IMG/VR virus record: IMGVR_UViG_3300044981_000021
Coordinates: 1 to 64,000 of that record
Reading direction: 5' to 3' (one strand)
Source of the DNA: a virus
Length of the DNA stretch: 64,000 nucleotides
Part shown: piece after piece, positions 50,314 to 60,043 of the stretch
Position numbering within the stretch: position 1 is the first letter of the stretch
Layout: each line of letters begins with the position of its first letter
The notes under the pieces: generated by a model
The model's database searches: none
What the model was told of the DNA's origin: nothing
The model's input: only the letters and a program-made list of their open reading frames with translations
Position numbers and translations under genes: made by a program

Positions 50314-50365
50314 TTTCCTTCTCCCTTCGGAAAAATTGGGGCGAGCATTGCACTCGCCCGCAGGC

Positions 50366-50824
50366 TTATGCAACTTCTTGAAATGAATGAGTGGGTATGT
50401 CGGTACTGGTTTCTGTAACGACATTGCGGAACCGCTCCAAAAAGGCGATGCTTTGGTTGAGTTCGCTGATTTGGGATTGAAGGTTCTCAACTTCCGTCTT
50501 TTTGCCGTAAATCATGGTATCGAGCTTGGTGGCAAATTGCGATGGGTTGTTGAGCAGTTCGATGAGCGGGTTGACCTTCGCTTTGTTGTACGGTCCACGA
50601 GAAGTACGTTTAACGTAGGTCCGCGACTTTGCGACGGTTTCTTTGTGGGATACCTTGCCGAGCCTGTATGCCTTAGACCCTGTGCTTGTTCCTGAGACGC
50701 CGTGTTGCAATCGGTGAGTGCCCAATTTGGGACGCTTGTCGAAAGTCGTGCGCTTCCCGTCTGCGGCACATTCAGGACATGGAAACGGCGGTCCCTGAAT
50801 TTCGTTGGTTGAAATGTGATTCAT
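50366..50824 (-). CDS. C2H2 Zn-finger/coiled-coil protein
   Basis: CPEC...HRLQH; AGGAG RBS. Confidence 0.6.
   Translation of the reverse strand: MNHISTNEIQGPPFPCPECAADGKRTTFDKRPKLGTHRLQHGVSGTSTGSKAYRLGKVSHKETVAKSRTYVKRTSRGPYNKAKVNPLIELLNNPSQFATKLDTMIYGKKTEVENLQSQISELNQSIAFLERFRNVVTETSTDIPTHSFQEVA
50605..50617. repeat. 13-bp palindrome TACGTTTAACGTA
   Basis: Family member. Confidence 0.8.
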
Positions 50825-50871
50825 TGATTTTCTCTCTCCTGTGCAAGTTGCACATTAACTCAGATGAAGAG

Positions 50872-50900
50872 AGATTAAACAGCGATTCATTATTTGTCAA
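50872..50900 (-). promoter_or_regulatory. sigma70-type promoter TTGACA-17-TAATCT
   Basis: Consensus match. Confidence 0.55.
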
Positions 50901-50906
50901 GAGATT

Positions 50907-50993
50907 TGGTCCTGGCAGCAGGAGTTCAACCCGCACGCCCATTACGAGCACTGCATCCTAAGTGCAGCGTGTCTAGCATTCCACCATGCCGGG
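50907..50993 (-). tRNA. tRNA-Leu(TAG)
   Basis: Cloverleaf, loop CTTAGGA, long variable arm, CCA. Confidence 0.85.
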
Positions 50994-50995
50994 AC

Positions 50996-51079
50996 TGGTG
51001 CCCATGGAGCGATTTGCACGCTCACGCCTTGCGGCAGCGGGTCTTAAATCCGCCGTGTATCCTATTCCACCACATGGGC
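50996..51079 (-). tRNA. tRNA-Leu(TAA)
   Basis: Loop TTTAAGA, long arm, CCA. Confidence 0.85.
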
Positions 51080-51085
51080 AAAATC

Positions 51086-51174
51086 TGGTGCATTGGGAGA
51101 GATTTCAACTCTCATTACCCGTAGGGTAGATCGTTTTACAGACGATTGCGACCAAGCGTATTCGCCTCCAATGC
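51086..51174 (-). tRNA. tRNA-Tyr(GTA)
   Basis: Loop CTGTAAA, long arm, CCA. Confidence 0.88.
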
Positions 51175-51175
51175 A

Positions 51176-51261
51176 TGGAGGAAGGTAGAGGAGTTTAACC
51201 CCCATCCCCGTAGGGAGCGACTGGGTTCAGGCCAGTTTGACACACGGTGTCCGTACCTTCC
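51176..51261 (-). tRNA. tRNA-Ser(TGA), C33
   Basis: Loop CCTGAAC, long arm, CCA. Confidence 0.8.
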
Positions 51262-51262
51262 A

Positions 51263-51350
51263 TGGCGGAGAATATGCGAGTCGAACGCATTCGCCCCTTG
51301 CGGGTGCTCTTGTTTAGCAGACAAGCCCCTTGCCGTCCGGGTCATTCTCC
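51263..51350 (-). tRNA. tRNA-Ser(GCT)
   Basis: Loop CTGCTAA, long arm, CCA. Confidence 0.88.
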
Positions 51351-51752
51351 GATAATAAATTCTTTATATTTATTGCCTACAACAATCATCCATTTGTTGC
51401 CCTTTAATTTACCGTAGGGAATTTCATAACAGTCGCCATCGTTGGTGACCACAAACAACACGTCCGCCGCGTTTACGTTAAACGTGGCATATCTAGCCTT
51501 ACCGTCGGCCCGCATTGATGTTGAGCACAAACGAACAACCCACTTAATTCCACGCTTGCCAATTTTCTTTTGGCAGGTAACTCGTACTTGTATTCGAGAA
51601 AATTTTCCATGCGCAAAAACCACAAGATCGAACGGCTGACTATCGGTCAACGGTATGCATACGGTATGGCCTAGCGATGTATAGTGGGCGATGGCCACAC
51701 CTATACCGTGGTCGCCTTTTTGTTTCGAGCCTCGATGTTCATTTGGCTTCAT
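51342..51752 (-). CDS. PD-(D/E)XK endonuclease (group I intron-associated type)
   Basis: KGDHGI...IPLTDSQPFDLVV...IQVR...YEIP. Confidence 0.8.
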   Translation of the reverse strand: MKPNEHRGSKQKGDHGIGVAIAHYTSLGHTVCIPLTDSQPFDLVVFAHGKFSRIQVRVTCQKKIGKRGIKWVVRLCSTSMRADGKARYATFNVNAADVLFVVTNDGDCYEIPYGKLKGNKWMIVVGNKYKEFIIGE

Positions 51753-51775
51753 ATCGTTAATCTAACATCTAATCT

Positions 51776-51863
51776 TGGTCCGGCCTCTCGGACTCGAACC
51801 GAGAATGCTTTTTAGGGCGGATGATCTTGAGCCATCTGCGGCTTCCAGTTTCGCCAAGGCCGG
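51776..51863 (-). tRNA. tRNA-Leu(CAA)
   Basis: Loop CTCAAGA, long arm, CCA. Confidence 0.88.
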
Positions 51864-51871
51864 ATAAATTG

Positions 51872-51943
51872 TTATAGGGATAAACTATACGACAGCCATG
51901 AACGGCTGAGGTTCGAGAGTCGCAATGAGCGTAGAAGAGTCAT
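51872..51943 (-). CDS. leader peptide 3 MTLLRSLRLSNLSRSWLSYSLSL (Leu/Ser/Tyr codon sensor); may be the tail of ORF 51872..52078
   Basis: All 6 Leu codons, 5 of 6 Ser codons and TAT; stop lies 8 nt upstream of the Leu/Ser/Tyr tRNA block. Confidence 0.7.
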   Translation of the reverse strand: MTLLRSLRLSNLSRSWLSYSLSL

Positions 51944-52207
51944 TGGGGTTACTATGACCGCGCCGATTGCTGTCATGTGAATCAGCGCAGACCGTGCATC
52001 ATTGGCGATTGACCTATCCTCGCGAAAGCCATCTGAGACTTGAATTCCCGTTTCGCTTAACTCAATGTGACAGCCCATTATAGAGTTAATGTCGGCACCC
52101 TTTACTCTCAGCCGCCTCGGGTGCGAAATGTCCGGTGAAGCAATCGTTCGGTCGTACAGGTCTTTCTATTGGGTGGAATGTCTATCGCGACGTTCCGCGT
52201 TTAAAAT

Positions 52208-52282
52208 TGGGAGCAGGTACCGGATTTGCACCGGGTCTAAGCGTTATGAGCGCTTCGTATTGTCCTGCGCTACTAACCTGCT
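52208..52282 (-). tRNA. tRNA-CAT (Met; initiator/elongator/Ile2 identity unresolved)
   Basis: Loop CTCATAA, CCA. Confidence 0.75.
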
Positions 52283-52288
52283 TCGATG

Positions 52289-52318
52289 ATTAAAGCATGA
52301 GCGCGGGACGCGAGTCAA
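52289..52318 (-). promoter_or_regulatory. promoter for tRNA block 3 (TTGACT-18-TTTAAT, extended -10)
   Basis: Consensus match directly upstream of tRNA-CAT. Confidence 0.55.
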
Positions 52319-52321
52319 GTT

Positions 52322-52885
52322 TTATTCCGTGTCGAACTCAACCATTTCTTCGCCCTTGAATTTTACTTGTTGAAGAATTTCTAGTGGAATCAATCCATTC
52401 CTATATGCGACGATTACGCGATATTCTTCGAGTTTCAACTGACCCTTGAGTTTGTTGCACTCTAGGCAACAAGGAACTTTGAGTTTTCCGCCAAGACTTC
52501 GGGGCGTAACGTGGTCCTTGGTCCTAATAGCGTCCTTGGTGCAGTCTGTCATGTCCCGTCCGCAGTAAAAGCAACTGCTGTAATACTGCCGTGGCGTGAT
52601 ATTCGGGAAAAGCTTAATTCCAGGAATTTTGGGGGCCGATAACTGTATCGACTTAGGTTTTTTATCAGGAGCTAGGCGAATAAGGTGTTTTTCGCCAACG
52701 GTATGCGGAAGTACACAGGTTCCGTTCGGAGCAACACATTCTACTGGTTCTACCGAAATACCGCCACGGGGAACATTTCCAAAATGATATTGGAAGCGTT
52801 GATCGGCTTCTGTGATATCTTCGGCATCACAGGCAAGAATAATCTTGCCCCCGCTATAGCGGTCGCGATAGATGTAGTGCTTCAT
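52322..52885 (-). CDS. HNH endonuclease
   Basis: CFYCG...TKDHVTPRSLGG...CCLECNKLKG. Confidence 0.85.
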   Translation of the reverse strand: MKHYIYRDRYSGGKIILACDAEDITEADQRFQYHFGNVPRGGISVEPVECVAPNGTCVLPHTVGEKHLIRLAPDKKPKSIQLSAPKIPGIKLFPNITPRQYYSSCFYCGRDMTDCTKDAIRTKDHVTPRSLGGKLKVPCCLECNKLKGQLKLEEYRVIVAYRNGLIPLEILQQVKFKGEEMVEFDTE

Positions 52886-53057
52886 GGTTGGGCTAGGTTA
52901 ATTTATGGTCAGCGGCAAGTCAAGTTTCTCGCTTTAACATTTTAGTTATAACGCCATCGTTATTTTTACAACCTGAGCTATTTTGCTCAGTATTGGCTCC
53001 CCAAACTTTATAGCCTTGTCACAGATCGTGACATTCCAACCAAGAGAGGAAAACACA

Positions 53058-53327
53058 ATGAACGTGCAAACACTGGCTGAAATCATCGAAAACCTGAGAG
53101 CGCAAGGCAAAGCATTCAACGAAGCCGCCGATACGCTTCAGGACAACAGGGGAAACCAGCAGAACGGAAATGGCCGCGCTAACGGCTTTTTAAGGCTGCC
53201 TCCACACGGAAACGCTGGGCGGCACATGAGCGCGGAGACTCGCAAGAAAATGTCGGCATCGCAGAAGGCGCGACATGCTTCCAAGCATATCCCTGCGATA
53301 GTGTCGGTTGATGATATGGTTGCCTAG
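53058..53327 (+). CDS. small protein with NUMOD3-like DNA-binding motif
   Basis: GRHMSAETRKKMSASQKAR; GAGG RBS. Confidence 0.6.
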   Translation: MNVQTLAEIIENLRAQGKAFNEAADTLQDNRGNQQNGNGRANGFLRLPPHGNAGRHMSAETRKKMSASQKARHASKHIPAIVSVDDMVA

Positions 53328-53477
53328 GCAACTAATTCATCTTCGGGTTCTGGCGTAGGTATGTATTCATCGTATCCGCCCCAGAACCCGTCGTCCTTTG
53401 CGACAGGGGGTGCGTAGGACCACAGGATGATCCACGCTAGGATTAGGGCAACGGTGATTAGGTAGGCAAGCATAAAA

Positions 53478-53552
53478 TGGTCGGGGTAGCTGATTCTGCC
53501 ACAGCAACCCCTCGGTCCCAGGCCGAGTGCTCTGCTTTTGAGCTATACCCCG
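53478..53552 (-). tRNA. tRNA-Pro(TGG), C33, atypical T arm
   Basis: Loop CCTGGGA, CCA. Confidence 0.8.
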
Positions 53553-53557
53553 AAATT

Positions 53558-53633
53558 TGGTGGGACGGGCCAGAATCGGACTGGCTACCACATGGGCTTC
53601 AGCCATGCACTCTACCGGCGAGTTCCACGTCCC
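53558..53633 (-). tRNA. tRNA-Phe(GAA)
   Basis: Loop CTGAAGC, CCA. Confidence 0.8.
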
Positions 53634-53687
53634 AAAATATTTTAGTGCGCTTGATAAAGTTTACGCAACCACGTCATAATAACACTT

Positions 53688-54227
53688 ATGAAGATAGCCA
53701 TCCATCATGGTAAACGCCGCAAACTTTATGAAACAAATTGCCAACACTGCAAGATATCGTTTTATACGCCAAAACATAAACTAGACAAACAGTTGTCAAA
53801 GTATTGCTCCTTGCCGTGTTTCCACGCGGCCTCACGAACGGCAACAATAAAACCGTGCGCCATATGCGAAAAACAAATCACGAGAACTCTAACGGCCTTG
53901 TCGCGATGCAAAAGTGGCCTATTTTTCTGCTCACGTAAATGTAAATCCATAGGCCAAAGATTTGAAAATACAACCATGGCCGCCTGCCATCCTGCGCATT
54001 ACAAGGATGGTTCTTCGGCCTACGGTAGAATTGCGATTCGCCACCACGGTAATCACTGCAATCGTTGTGGCTACAAAGAACATATTGAAATACTCCGCAC
54101 TCACCATAAAGACAGAAATAGCGAAAACAACTTGCCGGATAACCTTGAGCGCTTATGCCCAAATTGTCACGAAACTGAACATTTTTTAGCGGGCGATGGT
54201 GTTTATACTGGACACAAACGCCACTAG
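53688..54227 (+). CDS. HNH endonuclease with Zn-finger repeats, inverted within tRNA array
   Basis: CxxC/YCS/FCS repeats; HHKDRN..NN...NLERLCPNCH. Confidence 0.85.
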   Translation: MKIAIHHGKRRKLYETNCQHCKISFYTPKHKLDKQLSKYCSLPCFHAASRTATIKPCAICEKQITRTLTALSRCKSGLFFCSRKCKSIGQRFENTTMAACHPAHYKDGSSAYGRIAIRHHGNHCNRCGYKEHIEILRTHHKDRNSENNLPDNLERLCPNCHETEHFLAGDGVYTGHKRH

Positions 54228-54243
54228 CTCACTGCTCAAAATT

Positions 54244-54318
54244 TGGTGGAGGCGCGGAGAGTCGAACTCCGGATACTTGGTTGCAGGCCAAGTGTGTTCC
54301 CGCTAGCACTACGCCCCC
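54244..54318 (-). tRNA. tRNA-Ala(TGC), C33
   Basis: Loop CCTGCAA, G3.U70 pair, CCA. Confidence 0.88.
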
Positions 54319-54320
54319 AT

Positions 54321-54396
54321 TGGGGTATACGAGGAGGGTCGAACTCCCTAAAGACTGTTCCACAGACAGTCGCCGCACCGTTTGGCTTCGCATACC
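54321..54396 (-). tRNA. tRNA-His(GTG)
   Basis: Loop CTGTGGA, G-1:C73, CCA. Confidence 0.88.
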
Positions 54397-54402
54397 ATAA
54401 CT

Positions 54403-54477
54403 TGGAGCTGAACGTCAGGCTTCAACTGACATCTCCGAATTCACAAGATTCGTGTTCTGGTTTTGAACTAGTTCAGC
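54403..54477 (-). tRNA. tRNA-Thr(TGT), G37
   Basis: Loop CTTGTGA, CCA. Confidence 0.8.
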
Positions 54478-55173
54478 AATTTCTCTAAATTCTCTTGTCC
54501 GTCTTTTCTTTCGCCTAGAAGCACTTGCTTGTTTATTTCGTGATCGAAACGTGGGCGTCAAGGCGTGGCAATTAGGGCATAGCAATTTCAGGTTTTCGTC
54601 CTTATTGTTGTCGGCGTCTCCGTTGATATGTTCTATTTCTAGGGGTATTGGTTTTTGCAGCCACTCGGTCAAGCCGCAACTTTCGCACCGATACCCACGA
54701 GTTCTAAATAAATATCCACGTAATGCATGACTAGTCCTAGCCGTTTCGGGAGAAGTGGTTAGACAATAAATCCGCATTCCGTAACACGAATTACAGAATT
54801 TCCTATGCGTCGAGCACGGCGTTCCACAATGTTCACACTGTCCGGACGTGAGTGCTCGCTTGCGGCGATGTTTTAAGTAACACGCCCGACTACACGACCG
54901 CTGCTTTCGCTTCTCGTATGACATCTTTTCGCCACAATAAATACAACGCTTATTAGCAGCTTTTTCTCTAGCCGCCAAGGAAATCCCAACTCTAAATGCA
55001 GTCAATTTGTCTTTGGCTGCCAACCATCCGATGCGCCCAACATCTTCCCTCGACATTATCGGCTGTTCCCGTGGATCGTTTGTGTATATTCTTCGTGTTG
55101 TTTTTAAGGTGCGATCCCGATTCTTGTAATACCACCTGCGACGAGCCGCACGCCTTTTATCTTGGTTGCGCAT
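54415..55173 (-). CDS. HNH endonuclease (3' end overlaps tRNA-Thr)
   Basis: CESCG..EW...PLEIEHINGDADNN..ENLKLLCPNCHALT. Confidence 0.85.
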   Translation of the reverse strand: MRNQDKRRAARRRWYYKNRDRTLKTTRRIYTNDPREQPIMSREDVGRIGWLAAKDKLTAFRVGISLAAREKAANKRCIYCGEKMSYEKRKQRSCSRACYLKHRRKRALTSGQCEHCGTPCSTHRKFCNSCYGMRIYCLTTSPETARTSHALRGYLFRTRGYRCESCGLTEWLQKPIPLEIEHINGDADNNKDENLKLLCPNCHALTPTFRSRNKQASASRRKKRRTREFREIAELVQNQNTNLVNSEMSVEA

Positions 55174-55181
55174 ATAAATGT

Positions 55182-55255
55182 TGGAGCCAAGAATACGAAT
55201 CGGACGTATGCTTCGGTCGTACCAGGACCGCGTACTGCCACTATACGATCAAGGC
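55182..55255 (-). tRNA. tRNA-Thr(GGT)
   Basis: Loop CTGGTAC, CCA; two acceptor-stem mismatches. Confidence 0.78.
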
Positions 55256-55257
55256 TC

Positions 55258-55332
55258 TGGAGCCGAGACGGCGAATCGAGCGCCGATAACGAGTTTACGA
55301 ATCTCGCATTCTTCCACTTGAATTATCCCGGC
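55258..55332 (-). tRNA. tRNA-Thr(CGT)
   Basis: Loop TTCGTAA, CCA. Confidence 0.82.
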
Positions 55333-55338
55333 CAAACT

Positions 55339-55413
55339 TGGACTGCCGTGAGCGAATCGGACGCTCGTATAAGGTTTTGCAGACCTCAGCCTAAACCACT
55401 CGGCCAACGGCAG
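55339..55413 (-). tRNA. tRNA-Cys(GCA)
   Basis: Loop CTGCAAA, U73, CCA. Confidence 0.88.
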
Positions 55414-55419
55414 TAAAAT

Positions 55420-55520
55420 CTAGGTGTACGGTCCAAGAATCGCCGCGTTCCCGAATCGAACGGACCAACGCCACTGCTGCCTTGCAAGCGACCAGCGCCT
55501 TGTTGCGCACATACACCTAG
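55420..55520 (-). ncRNA. candidate tRNA-like ncRNA (Y RNA/YrlA-like?)
   Basis: 9-bp terminal stem CTAGGTGTA/TACACCTAG, internal T-loop CCG-TTCGATT-CGG, no CCA or anticodon arm. Confidence 0.45.
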
Positions 55521-55524
55521 AACT

Positions 55525-55598
55525 TGGAGCGGGATGCCGTAATCGAAACGGCGTCTGGAGTTTGGAAGACTCCGGCCTTGCCACTAGACGAATCCCGC
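55525..55598 (-). tRNA. tRNA-Gly(TCC)
   Basis: Loop CTTCCAA, U73, CCA. Confidence 0.9.
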
Positions 55599-55844
55599 TT
55601 ACTCAACGCATACACCGTTCATGTTTGTGGCGGTGCATTCTAAACAAAATTCTACCGCATGTTTAACGCATGGATACTGCTTCCAGCCATGCCTAGCCAT
55701 GTAATGATCCCAATGGCTAGCGACCCAATAGCGGGGTCGCGAACTGGCACCAGCGCCGTGAGTCGGACACGGTACATCTGTTTTGGAGACAGATCGAGCA
55801 CCCTTTTCGTCTTCGCTGGCAAAAATCTTCTTGAACAACTTCAT
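55599..55844 (-). CDS. small hypothetical protein in tRNA array
   Basis: AAGGA RBS; fills the gap between tRNAs. Confidence 0.45.
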   Translation of the reverse strand: MKLFKKIFASEDEKGARSVSKTDVPCPTHGAGASSRPRYWVASHWDHYMARHGWKQYPCVKHAVEFCLECTATNMNGVCVE

Positions 55845-55867
55845 TAAACGAACTTCCTTTCGTAATC

Positions 55868-55946
55868 TGGCGGTCGCAGCGGAATTTGAATCCGCGATCT
55901 GTTCCGTGACAGGGAACTGGGGACGGCCTGACTCCCCTATGCGACC
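55868..55946 (-). tRNA. tRNA-Asp(GTC)
   Basis: Loop CTGTCAC, G73, CCA. Confidence 0.88.
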
Positions 55947-56133
55947 GAATCTTTACAATGCGTACAGATGCATCCCCTGCCATGCAATTTAGAGATGCAC
56001 TTACTGCACCAAAGTTGCGCCCAACCACCACAAAGTTTCTCGCCAATCACGTGCTCCTTTGCGTCCATGACGGTCATAACTGCCCCGCTGCACCTGTGGC
56101 AAAACCCGATATGTTTCACGTGCGACATAAAAA

Positions 56134-56207
56134 TGGCCCCGAGTAGTTGAATCGAACAACTGTTGGCTGATCCAGAGTCAGCAGTCTTGCCACTAAACGA
56201 ACTCGGA
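56134..56207 (-). tRNA. tRNA-Gln(CTG)
   Basis: Loop CTCTGGA, CCA. Confidence 0.88.
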
Positions 56208-56212
56208 AATCT

Positions 56213-56246
56213 TGGAGCCGGGAGTATTTTAATGAGCTATCCCGGC
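56213..56246 (-). pseudogene. 34-nt tRNA remnant/minihelix GCCGGGA-TAGCTCATTAAAATAC-TCCCGGC-T-CCA
   Basis: Perfect 7-bp acceptor stem, TAGCTCA D-arm start and CCA; anticodon and T arms absent. Confidence 0.7.
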
Positions 56247-56308
56247 GCGCTCACTCGCGGAGCGTTGTCTGAAAAGGCGATCAACCCTCCAGTCGCAACG
56301 ACGCAAAA

Positions 56309-56382
56309 TGGAAGGGAGTCTGAGAATCGGACTCAGGTCTGATGATCCAAAGTCATCGGCATTGCCATTATGCGAACTCCCT
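56309..56382 (-). tRNA. tRNA-Gln(TTG)
   Basis: Loop CTTTGGA, CCA. Confidence 0.88.
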
Positions 56383-56718
56383 AACTCTTCAACGGAATTG
56401 CGCGTACGCATCTCGCGCAAATCACAAAACTTGAATCTACATCTTTTTCTAGTTTGCGCCGCGCCTCGCGACATTCTTCCACTAGGGCACGATGGTCTGA
56501 TAGCCCCATGCGGCAGTAATCTATCGTCCCGGGCATTACAATCGCGCCTAGAAGTTCATGCTTCATAAATCCTTAACTCAAATGGCCCAAAGCGGTAACT
56601 TGTGTACGGGCTATATCCCCACATAAGCGTCCCGTTCATGCGTAACGTCTTGCCAAAACTCCATGCATCCCAATATGCGTGCCACGTTACGAGTTTGGAG
56701 CCGATAGTCATAAATCCT

Positions 56719-56793
56719 TGGTAGGGCCAACGGAAGTCGAATCCGTATTCACGCCTTGAAAGAGCGTTTACCTAGCCGTTAGTAGATGGCCCC
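56719..56793 (-). tRNA. tRNA-Glu(TTC)
   Basis: Loop CTTTCAA, CCA. Confidence 0.85.
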
Positions 56794-56799
56794 AAAACT

Positions 56800-57144
56800 T
56801 TATACGGTCGCAGAATTGGCTATCACGGCCTCCGCGTATTCCACTAAGGGGCCATAACGCCTGCTATATCTCTTGTTTTTGCTTTGCTCCTTTGGCGTTG
56901 CCCAACGAACATTGCCACGTTCGTAATGACCGTTATTGTTTATCCTTTCTAGTGTTGAACCCTCCGGCCTCGGGCCTAATTCTTACATGAATTCGCCAAA
57001 CGAAACAAATCTAAATTCTATCCCCCTGCCGCCGTAGTACCTGAAATCTTCGCAATTACTATTCATGCAACGGTATCGCGCATGGTCGAAAGATTTATAT
57101 TCCCGCTTAAATTGTTTCGTTAAGCCACTTCCCGAAAATCTCAC
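56800..57144 (-). pseudogene. HNH endonuclease with in-frame TAA (56983-56985)
   Basis: RC...YYGGRGI...FGEFM*ELGPRPEG.TLERINNNGHYERGNVRWAT; AGGAG RBS. Confidence 0.8.
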
Positions 57145-57156
57145 CGTTAATCTCCT

Positions 57157-57193
57157 AAAAAACGTTTAGCCCCGCATTGTTTTTCGGGGCTAA
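57157..57193 (-). terminator. attenuator terminator hairpin after leader 2
   Basis: TTAGCCCCG/CGGGGCTAA stem then ACGTTTTTT. Confidence 0.7.
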
Positions 57194-57199
57194 TTGAAC

Positions 57200-57212
57200 T
57201 ACGTTAAATGTA
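57200..57212. repeat. 13-bp palindrome TACGTTAAATGTA
   Basis: Family member, inside attenuator 2. Confidence 0.85.
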
Positions 57213-57226
57213 CTTTCCCCGATTGT

Positions 57227-57298
57227 TTATGGCGTACCTTCCCCCGCCTGCCATTGGGCTGGTGTCGGGAAGCAATCGGCATGAAATTGAACATTCAT
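57227..57298 (-). CDS. leader peptide 2 MNVQFHADCFPTPAQWQAGEGTP (codon sensor for tRNA block 2)
   Basis: 19 of codons 4-23 specify amino acids of the downstream tRNAs; promoter upstream, terminator downstream. Confidence 0.78.
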   Translation of the reverse strand: MNVQFHADCFPTPAQWQAGEGTP

Positions 57299-57312
57299 TG
57301 GTTAATGAAACA

Positions 57313-57342
57313 AGCCTAAAGCATGTCTGCTTGTTCTGTCAA
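57313..57342 (-). promoter_or_regulatory. promoter for block 2 (TTGACA-18-TAGGCT)
   Basis: Consensus match 14 nt before the leader ATG. Confidence 0.6.
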
Positions 57343-57350
57343 GAAAAAAG

Positions 57351-57427
57351 TGGAAGGCCGGATCGGACTTGAACCGACAACCTCAAGATTCGGAATCTTG
57401 CGCGAGTTCCCTTTTCGCTTCCGGCCC
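57351..57427 (-). tRNA. tRNA-Arg(CCG)
   Basis: Loop TTCCGAA, CCA. Confidence 0.85.
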
Positions 57428-57430
57428 AAA

Positions 57431-57507
57431 TGGTCCTAGCGACAGGATTCAAACCTGCATTCAACTGTTTAGGAAACAGTGCCGTTGTTCAGTTACGGAA
57501 CGCTAGG
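57431..57507 (-). tRNA. tRNA-Arg(CCT)
   Basis: Loop TTCCTAA, CCA. Confidence 0.85.
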
Positions 57508-57512
57508 AAAAT

Positions 57513-57811
57513 CGGCCACAAGTCAAACTGCAAACTTTCGCTAGCTACTTCGTCCTTCTGCGCTGGGCCACTCACGACGGTTAAGCTCTATCTATCCCAG
57601 CCTTCGGTCGGCTCTTTCCTCCGATTAGGGGCGTCATCTTCCAGACTTTTTGCCAACTTCGTTGGTTCCACTAGAACCATTACTGGATTGCATCTAACTT
57701 CGCCAACGCGACACTAGATCGACTTTCGGGAGCGGGTTAGATACCCGTTGCTTGGCCAAGCATCCCCTCGGCTAGTCGTCCAACCGGCAAGCGGCAGTTT
57801 TTTCGTGGCCG
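57513..57811 (-). ncRNA. candidate ~300-nt structured ncRNA in tRNA array
   Basis: Closing stems CGGCCAC/GTGGCCG and AAACTGC/GCAGTTT; many internal hairpins; no sense-strand ORF in the track. Confidence 0.6.
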
Positions 57812-57833
57812 AAATAAATATAACACGGGAAAA

Positions 57834-57911
57834 TGGTGCAGGATAGTGGACTCGAACCACTCGCCTCGGCTTTCGTAGAACCGCGCTCTAGTCCTGATGA
57901 GCTAATCCTGC
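57834..57911 (-). tRNA. tRNA-Arg(ACG)
   Basis: Loop CTACGAA, CCA. Confidence 0.9.
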
Positions 57912-57916
57912 AAACT

Positions 57917-57991
57917 TGGGAGCGCATAACCGGGTCGAACGGTTGTCTCTTAGGTAGAAGCCAAGGCTCTGTCCTGTTGAGCTAATGCGCC
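57917..57991 (-). tRNA. tRNA-Arg(TCT)
   Basis: Loop CTTCTAC, CCA. Confidence 0.82.
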
Positions 57992-57998
57992 ACAATTC

Positions 57999-58074
57999 TG
58001 GTGGAAGTGAGACGATTCAAACGTCCATCGGCCTACTTAAAAGGTAGGGGTCTTAATCGTTAGACGACACTTCC
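57999..58074 (-). tRNA. tRNA-Lys(TTT)
   Basis: Loop CTTTTAA, CCA. Confidence 0.88.
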
Positions 58075-58079
58075 AAAAC

Positions 58080-58154
58080 TGGTGGAGCGCAATGGACTCG
58101 AACCATTGTTTCCCGAGTAAGGGTCGGGTTGCCTAGCCACTGACGGAGCGCTCC
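58080..58154 (-). tRNA. tRNA-Lys(CTT), C33
   Basis: Loop CCCTTAC, CCA. Confidence 0.8.
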
Positions 58155-58160
58155 TAAAAA

Positions 58161-58238
58161 TGGTGCGGAATATTGGAATTGAACCAATGGCCTCGTCCTT
58201 ATCAGAGACGCGCTCTAAGCCAACTGAGCTAATTCCGC
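58161..58238 (-). tRNA. tRNA-Ile(GAT)
   Basis: Loop CTGATAA, CCA. Confidence 0.9.
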
Positions 58239-58239
58239 A

Positions 58240-58315
58240 TGGTGCCGGAGCCAAGACTCGAACTTGGGACTTCCTGCTTGTAGGGCAGGCACTCTGGCCG
58301 CTGAGTTAATCCGGC
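58240..58315 (-). tRNA. tRNA-Val(TAC), C33
   Basis: Loop CCTACAA, CCA. Confidence 0.85.
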
Positions 58316-58317
58316 AC

Positions 58318-58392
58318 TGGTTGAGGGCGATGGAATCGAACCATCCCGAAACAGTGTTTATAAGACGCCGCAGCGCTCCAGTGCTGCCCTCA
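58318..58392 (-). tRNA. tRNA-Ile(TAT)
   Basis: Loop CTTATAA, CCA; irregular D and anticodon stems. Confidence 0.7.
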
Positions 58393-58397
58393 AAATC

Positions 58398-58473
58398 TGG
58401 TACGAGTGGGAGGAATCGAACCTTCCGACACCGTGGTTATGGGCCACGTAATCTACCACTGATCTACACTCGC
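58398..58473 (-). tRNA. tRNA-CAT (Met or Ile2), C33
   Basis: Loop CCCATAA, CCA. Confidence 0.8.
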
Positions 58474-58698
58474 TCAACTTAAACCGCCTACGCGCCATTT
58501 ATCGTTGATTTGCGCGTATTCCTGCTCAATCTTTCCAACCCGAACCACGGTCCAACGGCGTTCATTCATAAGCGATTCTTCGTGGTCGAAGGTTACGACG
58601 TTACCGCGCTTTAATCTCCACGATGCATCTACCCATGCAGTCGTATGGCGAACACCGCCATTTACTTTACGCTCGAATTGGACTTGAACCATCCTCAT
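58474..58698 (-). CDS. small hypothetical protein in tRNA array
   Basis: Fills the gap between tRNA-Asn and tRNA-CAT. Confidence 0.5.
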   Translation of the reverse strand: MRMVQVQFERKVNGGVRHTTAWVDASWRLKRGNVVTFDHEESLMNERRWTVVRVGKIEQEYAQINDKWRVGGLS

Positions 58699-58705
58699 AA
58701 AAATA

Positions 58706-58793
58706 TGGCTGGCACGAGAGGACTCGAACCTCCAGAGGGTTGCCCCACTTCATTAACAGTGAAGCCCGCTACCAAATTACGGTTTACATGCCA
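58706..58793 (-). tRNA. tRNA-Asn(GTT) with long variable arm
   Basis: Loop CTGTTAA, G73, variable arm TGGGGCAACCCTCT, CCA. Confidence 0.82.
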
Positions 58794-58804
58794 ACGTTGT
58801 CTCC

Positions 58805-58844
58805 AAAACCAAATGGGCCTTCAGGTTAAGTTTTGAAGGCCCAT
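58805..58844 (-). terminator. terminator hairpin between leader 1 and tRNA block 1
   Basis: 11-bp stem ATGGGCCTTCA/TGAAGGCCCAT followed by TTGGTTTT. Confidence 0.75.
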
Positions 58845-58875
58845 CAGGAAAGGAGGATGCAATGAAAATGAACTC

Positions 58876-58947
58876 TTATCCCGAACGCGCCCGCACGACT
58901 CGCATTCTAATGCGATTTCGCTTTTCGCGTTTAGGTATCAAGCTCAT
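58876..58947 (-). CDS. leader peptide 1 MSLIPKREKRNRIRMRVVRARSG (codon sensor for tRNA block 1)
   Basis: 14 of codons 6-21 are K/R/N/I/M/V; ATG 6 nt after the -10 box (leaderless); terminator follows. Confidence 0.78.
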   Translation of the reverse strand: MSLIPKREKRNRIRMRVVRARSG

Positions 58948-58953
58948 TGGTCT

Positions 58954-58982
58954 AATCTACATCAGCGATTTGGGAAAAGCAA
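58954..58982 (-). promoter_or_regulatory. promoter for block 1 (TTGCTT-17-TAGATT)
   Basis: Consensus match; predicted TSS at or next to the leader ATG. Confidence 0.6.
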
Positions 58983-59254
58983 GAAGATTATTGAACACCA
59001 TTCCAAGACTGCAATCCTCGCAATCCAGATTGGATATTACTAAATCCTCCGGTAATGGTTGGCGGCCAATATGGCGAAGTATTTGGATAGCCGAACGGAT
59101 ATGGCTGAATCGTTGGCTGGGTTCTGTAGCGGCCACAAGTAGGACAATAACCACAATTAGGACAGACGCTCCCAAAATGTTGTGCATAATCTGGGTTGAT
59201 TCCTTGGGGTTGATAATTTGCTGATTGAAAATCGTTGTACATGCCGTAATTATA

Positions 59255-60043
59255 CTATTTCCAGGGTGACCCAGAGTGGATAATCTTCAAATCGGTTTGC
59301 GGATCATCGAGAACTTGCAATGGCATCCAAAAGAACCCCGATAAGCCCCATCCCGAACCCCACGAATTTTGAATCAATACGGCGGGAGGGCAACCAACGG
59401 GTCGAAGCGTGGGCGTTTCTCCAACGTCGCATCCAACCATTAAAACTTCGTGCCCTCCCATGACTTCTTCCCCTTGGGCGGGAATGGGCATAATCCCCGT
59501 TTGCGCTAGTTCGTCACTCTCGAAAGATGCATAAACCGTGAATCCAACCTCGATTGGCCATGGAGTTGGGTCGCCAATAACACTTAACGCTGTTTGCGAT
59601 CCCGTTAGGCCATGATAAGCGCCAAGTCTAAATTGTGCGGCATTGGCATCCTGCGAAGTTGTTGGCTTTTCGATATCCCCAGCGATATATGGGTAGACGG
59701 ATAATTCGCAGCACCCACTGACGATCATAGTATTACAGAGCGTTGTACCATCTGCTCCAACGTCGTTTGGAAAGTTGCCTTGGGCGATTAATTCCTTGGC
59801 GTAGGTATATTGCGGAGAGAAAATTGGGGATGCGTTGAGATATTTGCGATGAATTAATTCATTGGCCGATGTCCCGGCATGGCCCGTACACGAACCCTCT
59901 TGGCCTTGGTCTTTTATGGGGCCACACCAAATTCTTAGATCGACCACGGGAGAAGCAATCGTGGCACGAGAAAGCATTCTATGGGCGGGAAGCGGCGCGG
60001 GGATATTGCGTCCGTAGCGCCGCCCAATTGTGCTGATAGCCAT
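59255..60043 (-). CDS. papain-like (C1 family) cysteine peptidase
   Basis: VDLR, DQGQEGSCTGH, GGHEV, IQNSWG..WG..GFF. Confidence 0.9.
   Translation of the reverse strand: MAISTIGRRYGRNIPAPLPAHRMLSRATIASPVVDLRIWCGPIKDQGQEGSCTGHAGTSANELIHRKYLNASPIFSPQYTYAKELIAQGNFPNDVGADGTTLCNTMIVSGCCELSVYPYIAGDIEKPTTSQDANAAQFRLGAYHGLTGSQTALSVIGDPTPWPIEVGFTVYASFESDELAQTGIMPIPAQGEEVMGGHEVLMVGCDVGETPTLRPVGCPPAVLIQNSWGSGWGLSGFFWMPLQVLDDPQTDLKIIHSGSPWK

Follow-up and report, generated by a model that had tools for sequence, protein, structure and literature searches.

Multivalent leader-peptide attenuators are well known from the amino-acid operons of enterobacteria, where they include thrL (Thr and Ile), ilvL (Ile, Leu and Val), hisL, trpL, pheL and leuL. 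For the arrays of transfer RNA (tRNA) genes carried by phages, both purpose and expression are debated, and codon-usage matching, the replacement of degraded host tRNAs and the evasion of anticodon nucleases have each been put forward. Here we describe a phage tRNA array, located at positions 50,907 to 58,982 of a 64,000-nucleotide (nt) stretch of viral DNA (hereafter the window), in which each of three blocks of tRNA genes is preceded by a micro open reading frame (micro-ORF; leaders 1, 2 and 3) whose codons match the tRNAs of that block. By analogy, the nearest known systems are the multivalent leader-peptide attenuators of the thr and ilv operons. Leaders 1 and 2 have in common with the attenuators of amino-acid operons a promoter-proximal micro-ORF enriched in regulatory codons and then an intrinsic terminator, along with a mutually exclusive antiterminator, predicted here, whose 5′ strand lies at the end of the ORF, such that a stalled ribosome would lead to read-through. 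Based on the sequence comparisons and folding predictions presented below, we consider it likely that leaders 1 and 2 act by ribosome-mediated (leader-peptide) transcription attenuation on the phage's own tRNAs, and that a tRNA set is probably produced only if the codons sampled by its leader are decoded slowly.

The window comprises the initial 64 kb of the complete IMG/VR record of an uncultured phage (IMGVR_UViG_3300044981_000021; 100,880 bp, with direct terminal repeats), and all features described are on its minus strand unless indicated otherwise. The tRNA genes were called with ARAGORN at default settings, with Rfam at a relaxed threshold, and with ARAGORN at 85% thresholds. The default run returned 25 tRNAs, to which Rfam and relaxed ARAGORN added Leu-taa, Ser-tga, Tyr-gta, Phe-gaa and Pro-tgg, as well as a second tRNA(CAT) (52282-52208) and tRNA-Trp(cca) (55820-55745). 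The array thus totals 32 tRNA genes for all 20 amino acids, rather than the 31 genes and 19 amino acids counted in an earlier sequence-only reading of this DNA, which had missed tRNA-Trp, and the genome's tRNAs are confined to it, with none elsewhere in the 100,880 bp. The sorting of the genes into three blocks is as that reading described. Block 1 (57351-58793) holds 11 genes, for Asn, CAT, Ile-tat, Val, Ile-gat, two Lys and four Arg tRNAs. Block 2 (53478-56793) holds 14, for Glu, two Gln, Asp, Trp, Gly, Cys, three Thr, His, Ala, Phe and Pro, interspersed with HNH endonuclease genes and small ORFs. Block 3 (50907-51863) consists of six class-II tRNA genes (Leu-caa, Ser-gct, Ser-tga, Tyr-gta, Leu-taa and Leu-tag), with a PD-(D/E)XK endonuclease ORF behind the first of them.

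The three micro-ORFs, each 72 nt and 23 codons long, are present where the sequence-only reading had placed them, with the translations it gave and a shared seven-base start context; this context is not specific, occurring 14 times in the window against 9.3 expected. Leader 1 (58876-58947) devotes 15 of 22 codons to Asn, Met, Ile, Val, Lys and Arg, while 20 of 22 codons in leader 2 (57227-57298) specify the 11 amino acids of block 2, Trp included. Leader 3 (51872-51943), which begins at an inner ATG within a longer open frame (51872-52078), has 16 of 22 codons for Leu, Ser or Tyr, using all six Leu codons and five of the six Ser codons. A cognate codon is found in the leader for 10 of 11, 13 of 14 and 6 of 6 own-block tRNAs for leaders 1, 2 and 3, respectively. 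When compared with all ATG ORFs of 18-30 codons on both strands of the window (310 in total), no ORF other than a block's own leader attains that leader's score for the block. Against a null of two million random 22-codon strings drawn from phage codon usage, the corresponding probabilities are P = 7e-5 (leader 1), 2e-4 (leader 2) and below 5e-7 (leader 3). The codon match in the window is well beyond chance, with a negligible joint chance probability, and the proposed tie between leader codons and block identity is upheld.

Three related arrays were available for comparison. The complete phages G1 (82% portal identity) and G2 (69%; L048) were reached via the portal protein, and a fourth phage, G3 (L056), also complete, via a conserved gene just downstream of the array. 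A metagenome scan gave three loci, one of them this new relative (G3) and the other two identical to G1 and G2, and an exact-pattern scan for the conserved start of leader 3 recovered only the two relatives already known. A megablast search with the array returned no GenBank phage. The phage genome encodes an SU10-type portal protein and a primase-helicase, and among cultured phages its nearest neighbour in portal sequence, at 26% identity, is Tunturiibacter phage Tunturi_3, so that the host is possibly a soil acidobacterium; Tunturi_3 itself has only three, scattered tRNAs and was of no use as a comparison genome.

The tRNA order is the same in the window phage, G1, G2 and G3, and in each relative a micro-ORF is present at each of the three places, with its sequence diverged and its composition kept. 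These ORFs are 21-30 codons long (22-26 for the homologues of leader 1), so the exact length of 72 nt stressed in the sequence-only reading holds for the window phage but not for its relatives. In each phage, pairing every leader with its true block gives 49-52 own-block codons, whereas the best of the wrong pairings reaches 25-35. Of the 278 leader codons in the four phages, 202 are own-block, with shares of 61-91% in 11 of the 12 leaders and 48% in leader 3 of G2, the frame of which runs past a lost stop; the leader-to-block correspondence noticed in the window is therefore kept in the related arrays. Length differences among phages amount to whole codons, and aligned positions display switches between the TCN and AGY boxes of Ser and between the CGN and AGR boxes of Arg, as well as many synonymous changes. 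Together, these patterns point to selection on the leader reading frame.

Individual leader codons also follow the presence of individual tRNAs. GAG is found only in the leaders of G2, the sole phage with tRNA-Glu(ctc), CGG is missing only from those of G3, where tRNA-Arg(ccg) was not detected, and ACG is missing only from those of G1, where tRNA-Thr(cgt) was not detected. By a hand tally over six variable anticodons, codon and tRNA agree in 21 of 24 informative cases, where a tRNA scored as not detected in a relative was missed by ARAGORN and Rfam only and may represent a detection failure, as short-word BLAST could not confirm absence. A Trp codon is present in every leader 2, matching the tRNA-Trp in block 2. 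The window's tRNA-Trp(cca) has an odd D arm and is not called at default thresholds, its acceptor, anticodon and T stems show compensatory changes relative to the G1 homologue, and G2 carries a canonical tRNA-Trp at the matching position. This gene (55745-55820) sits within an 81-codon open frame (55599-55844) that is also open in G1, at 56% identity.

The comparison bears on two other accounts of the codon match. The ORFs might be untranslated, representing structured RNA leaders or plain terminators, with the match arising by chance or from base composition. The lack of a Shine-Dalgarno sequence and the strong folding of leaders 1 and 2 (z = -6.2 and -3.3) are in line with this possibility, and helices could yield CGN-rich, GC-rich sequence. 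However, chance is negligible for the three matches jointly, the frame survives whole-codon indels as well as two-box Ser and Arg switches that need several base changes, and leader 3 is weakly structured but the best match of all, making this explanation very unlikely. Alternatively, the leaders might be translated attenuators that gauge general translation capacity, such as ribosome availability or elongation rate, and acquire their composition as a by-product. This would accommodate leaders that contain many different codons, each only one to two times, and in which about 27% of codons come from other blocks, and read-through would indeed follow any slowing of elongation. A general gauge, however, needs no block-specific composition, whereas the three leaders differ in composition and each has stayed in agreement with the block behind it in all four phages, down to single codons that track single tRNAs. 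We regard this second account as improbable, though less so than the first.

For leaders 1 and 2, the surrounding sequence provides further evidence for attenuation. Each has a sigma-70-like promoter directly before it, as the sequence-only reading had proposed for all three leaders; for leader 3 this proved incorrect, its promoter being located ahead of a tRNA(CAT). P1 (58954-58982; -35 at 58982-58977, 17-nt spacer, -10 at 58959-58954) has 6 nt between the -10 and the leader 1 ATG, and its -35/-10 layout and an A-rich upstream stretch are also found in G1, G2 and G3. P2 (57313-57342; -35 at 57342-57337, 18-nt spacer, -10 at 57318-57313), likewise kept in the three relatives, begins 9 nt past the last block 1 tRNA and has 14 nt from its -10 to the leader 2 ATG. 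Promoters at this distance imply leader messages with little or no 5′ untranslated region, and for leaders 1 and 2 we infer a leaderless or almost leaderless message.

Behind both ORFs stands an intrinsic terminator. T1 (58802-58845) is a stem-loop at 58845-58812 with a U-rich tail to 58802 (-18.8 kcal/mol) and its hairpin ends 19 nt ahead of tRNA-Asn, and T2 (57156-57193) is a stem-loop at 57193-57166 with a T-run to 57156 (-14.4 kcal/mol). In all eight copies of leaders 1 and 2 from the four phages, a GC-rich hairpin of -14 to -19 kcal/mol with a U-rich tail is found 22-34 nt past the stop codon. The hairpin of leader 1 ends 14-19 nt ahead of tRNA-Asn across the four phages, leaving no room for a further promoter. 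The order of promoter, ORF, terminator and genes is conserved among them, and a terminator placed about 110 nt behind a promoter makes sense only as an attenuator.

The terminators also have complementary strands near the ends of the ORFs. Antiterminator strand 1 (58880-58896), in the last codons of leader 1, is predicted to pair with the 5′ arm of T1 in a duplex of -14.3 kcal/mol, and to do so with a ribosome placed at codons 1-13. Antiterminator strand 2 (57211-57223) starts 3 nt past the leader 2 stop and is predicted to pair with the 5′ arm of T2; without a ribosome, its nucleotides are predicted to pair instead with leader 2 codons 7-9. Terminator sequences differ among the phages, yet the best partner of the 5′ arm is always within about 18 nt of the stop codon (8/8 copies), indicating that the antiterminator strand changes together with the terminator. 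Against terminators of -14 to -19 kcal/mol, the predicted antiterminator duplexes range from -11 to -19 kcal/mol, each with a shuffle p value between 0.002 and 0.11. To model stalling, RNA truncated before the terminator 3′ arm was folded with the ribosome footprint masked codon by codon, and the antiterminator was predicted to form for stalls at approximately codons 1-14. Without a ribosome it is not predicted to form in either of these leaders of the window phage, nor in leader 1 of G1 and G3, because an upstream segment of the ORF holds the strand. The stall-driven attenuation suggested by the sequence-only reading is well supported by comparison and predicted structure for leaders 1 and 2, which combine promoter, matched ORF, terminator and co-varying antiterminator strand in four phages, but it does not extend to leader 3, which has no terminator.

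The same structures speak to whether the micro-ORFs might instead serve to make functional micro-peptides, such as, for leader 1, an RNA-binding peptide rich in arginine, with the terminators as ordinary transcript ends. The product of leader 1 is strongly basic, and each leader family has short conserved motifs, as might be expected of a peptide with its own function. These motifs, however, coincide with RNA helices, and a functional peptide would leave unexplained why its composition equals the amino-acid set of the downstream block, why synonymous variety is maximised (up to all six Leu codons in leader 3), and why a terminator is found only about 110 nt past the promoter. We give this explanation very little credence.

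Taken as attenuators, leaders 1 and 2 would operate as follows. Transcription would start at the sigma-70-like promoter 6-14 nt before the ATG, and a ribosome would read some 22 codons that sample nearly all codon families served by the tRNAs of the downstream block. When decoding is fast, the ribosome would reach the end of the ORF and cover the antiterminator strand or, alternatively, be released, upon which the upstream ORF segment would bind that strand. The terminator 22-34 nt past the stop would then form, leaving the tRNA block untranscribed. Slow decoding of any sampled codon would stall the ribosome upstream and allow the antiterminator strand to pair with the 5′ arm of the terminator, and RNA polymerase would continue into the tRNA block. 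The outcome would be negative feedback, or supply on demand, separately for each tRNA set. The sequence-only reading proposed that the purpose might be to counter host anticodon nucleases. Such a switch would answer any slow decoding, including that caused by amino-acid starvation or by a mismatch between phage codons and host tRNAs. Leader 3 would provide a codon inventory of the same kind for the Leu/Ser/Tyr block, but act through a different output step. Translation of the leaders, the sites of transcription start and the response to tRNA supply are those that we infer from this arrangement.

Several observations weigh against this interpretation. Some tRNAs are without a cognate leader codon, for example Arg-cct and Thr-ggt in the window, and roughly 27% of leader codons belong to other blocks. 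The Shine-Dalgarno sequence that neighbouring phage genes possess is absent from all leaders, and their translation consequently rests on an assumed leaderless or A-rich initiation. Stall predictions are ambiguous for the last third of the ORFs, and four of the eight ribosome-free folds already show partial antiterminator pairing. Full-length RNA at equilibrium always keeps the terminator, also with ribosome masks, so that the choice between the two structures would have to be made kinetically, as it is in known attenuators. The terminators themselves have loops of 10-12 nt, the U-tracts of T1 are interrupted, and a simple consensus terminator scan, which allows loops of at most 8 nt, for this reason missed both T1 and T2. 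Finally, leader 3 is without a terminator in all four phages, which rules out a trp/his-type switch for this leader, and in G2 a 2-nt insertion removes its stop, such that the frame runs into the tRNA. The G2 insertion (leader 3 at L048:9981-10073) lies in a C run, the resulting frame ends 10 nt inside tRNA-Leu, and it may be either a real variant or a homopolymer assembly error.

The layout at leader 3 is distinct from that of the other two. Its promoter, P3 (52289-52318; -35 at 52318-52313, 18-nt spacer, -10 at 52294-52289), is conserved in all four phages and stands 6 nt (6-7 nt across the four) ahead of tRNA(CAT) (52208-52282; Rfam 25 bits, relaxed ARAGORN), the first gene of the block 3 transcript. 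The order of this transcript is tRNA(CAT), leader 3, Leu, two Ser, Tyr and two Leu. The gap between tRNA(CAT) and leader 3 is widest in the window (264 nt), shorter in G2 (97 nt) and only 8 nt in both G1 and G3, while the distance from the leader 3 stop to tRNA-Leu(CAA) is conserved at 5-8 nt (8 nt in the window). No conserved structure joining leader 3 to tRNA-Leu was found. In the four phages, leader 3 has a C/G ratio of 1.6-2.2 and 11-17 YC dimers, and it is weakly structured, at -0.15 to -0.17 kcal/mol per nt compared to about -0.33 for leader 1, yet it has the strongest codon match. Its start-codon region (51927-51946) is predicted to pair with codons 6-7 in a 6-bp hairpin, the halves of which are invariant in the window, G1 and G2; based on this folding prediction, the hairpin could limit initiation.

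Two output steps for leader 3 were considered, both of which we view as possible but rather doubtful. A ribosome that stalls on this leader, which is C-rich, G-poor and unstructured, might hide a loading site for Rho, as in tnaC, or a ribosome that ends 5-8 nt ahead of tRNA-Leu might hinder RNase P cleavage and so couple the leader to tRNA processing. The first would fit a leader that is C-rich, poor in G and unstructured in four phages, the second the conserved distance between stop and tRNA, and both the absence of a terminator. The C-richness is, however, an automatic consequence of Leu, Ser and Tyr codons, and tRNA transcripts are structured and usually poor substrates for Rho.

The array contains other elements besides tRNAs and leaders. 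Within block 1, a non-coding element of about 310 nt (57508-57833) lies between tRNA-Arg(acg) and tRNA-Arg(cct). It has 84% mean column identity over the window, G1 and G3 and is absent from G2, and RNAalifold predicts 82 pairs, 14 of them with compensatory double changes; the element has no Rfam match and is a candidate for a new stable RNA that would be transcribed along with the tRNAs. A 152-codon ORF with a cysteine motif (50366-50824) is found directly behind the last tRNA in 4/4 phages and is followed by a strong terminator (50339-50359), meaning that it may be co-transcribed with block 3. Between tRNA-Glu and tRNA-Gln, a 61-codon ORF (56381-56566) without a family match occupies the same place in G1 (82%) and G2 (41%). 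Four endonuclease genes (three HNH, one PD-(D/E)XK) are located at 54415-55173 (-), 53688-54227 (+), 52322-52885 (-) and 51342-51752 (-); their positions in the array differ among relatives, and they appear to be typical homing endonucleases. A gene for a papain-family (C1) peptidase (59255-60043) lies shortly upstream of the array. A homologue of this peptidase, 68% identical, is encoded on the 6.6-kb viral contig L002, which was rejected as an array relative since it is without tRNAs in the 5.7 kb downstream.

A broader interpretation, which we offer only tentatively and hold to be doubtful, is that each block is an independent sensor-effector module that restores exactly those tRNAs whose decoding has slowed, answering host tRNA-cleaving defences or tRNA shut-down by codon family. 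The three leaders together would then inventory the whole genetic code, with leader 3 representing a further coupling of micro-ORF to tRNA output that works without an intrinsic terminator, via Rho or tRNA 5′ processing. Already a cis-acting switch that responds to decoding speed at exactly the codons served by the tRNAs behind it would mean that tRNAs are, to the phage, a self-limiting supply drawn on demand, and would make the purpose of phage tRNAs directly testable, as each leader would be a natural reporter of the tRNA shortage that the phage expects. It would also carry leader-peptide attenuation beyond amino-acid metabolism into the translation apparatus itself, and provide compact, codon-specific sensors of tRNA availability that are usable as tools.

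No description of leader-peptide control of tRNA genes was found in the literature, where search coverage was thin for subscription journals and absence is not proof. Among known systems, T-box riboswitches likewise sense tRNA status and control terminator read-through, but they recognise uncharged tRNA directly through contacts between the two RNAs, work without translation, and govern genes for synthetases, transport and biosynthesis; at E values up to 10, positions 50500-59300 gave no hit to the T-box or to another cis-regulatory family of Rfam, only tRNA-type families being found. The Rho-dependent control of tnaC, in which a short ORF carries a stalled ribosome that blocks a factor-dependent stop beside the stop codon, is a possible model for leader 3, with a likeness in base composition alone and no arrest peptide or rut/boxA element identified. 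The tRNA clusters of T4 and T5 likewise mix tRNA genes with homing endonuclease genes, small ORFs and, by the T5 annotation, stable RNAs of unassigned function; a brief inspection of ATG ORFs within 330 nt ahead of 13 T5 tRNA groups revealed no codon-matched leader.

The closest comparison therefore remains that with the attenuators of amino-acid operons, from which the phage leaders differ in several respects. They would regulate tRNAs rather than biosynthetic enzymes, closing the loop on the very molecule that is sensed. Whereas the leaders of amino-acid operons contain runs of one to three amino acids, the phage leaders sample up to 16 tRNA species one to two times each. Unlike their enterobacterial counterparts, they are without a Shine-Dalgarno sequence and would have almost no 5′ untranslated region, and three parallel modules divide the whole code between them. 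What is new here, relative to the thr and ilv attenuators, would be the use of tRNAs as the regulated genes, the sampling of up to 16 tRNA species by a single leader, and the splitting of the code over three modules.

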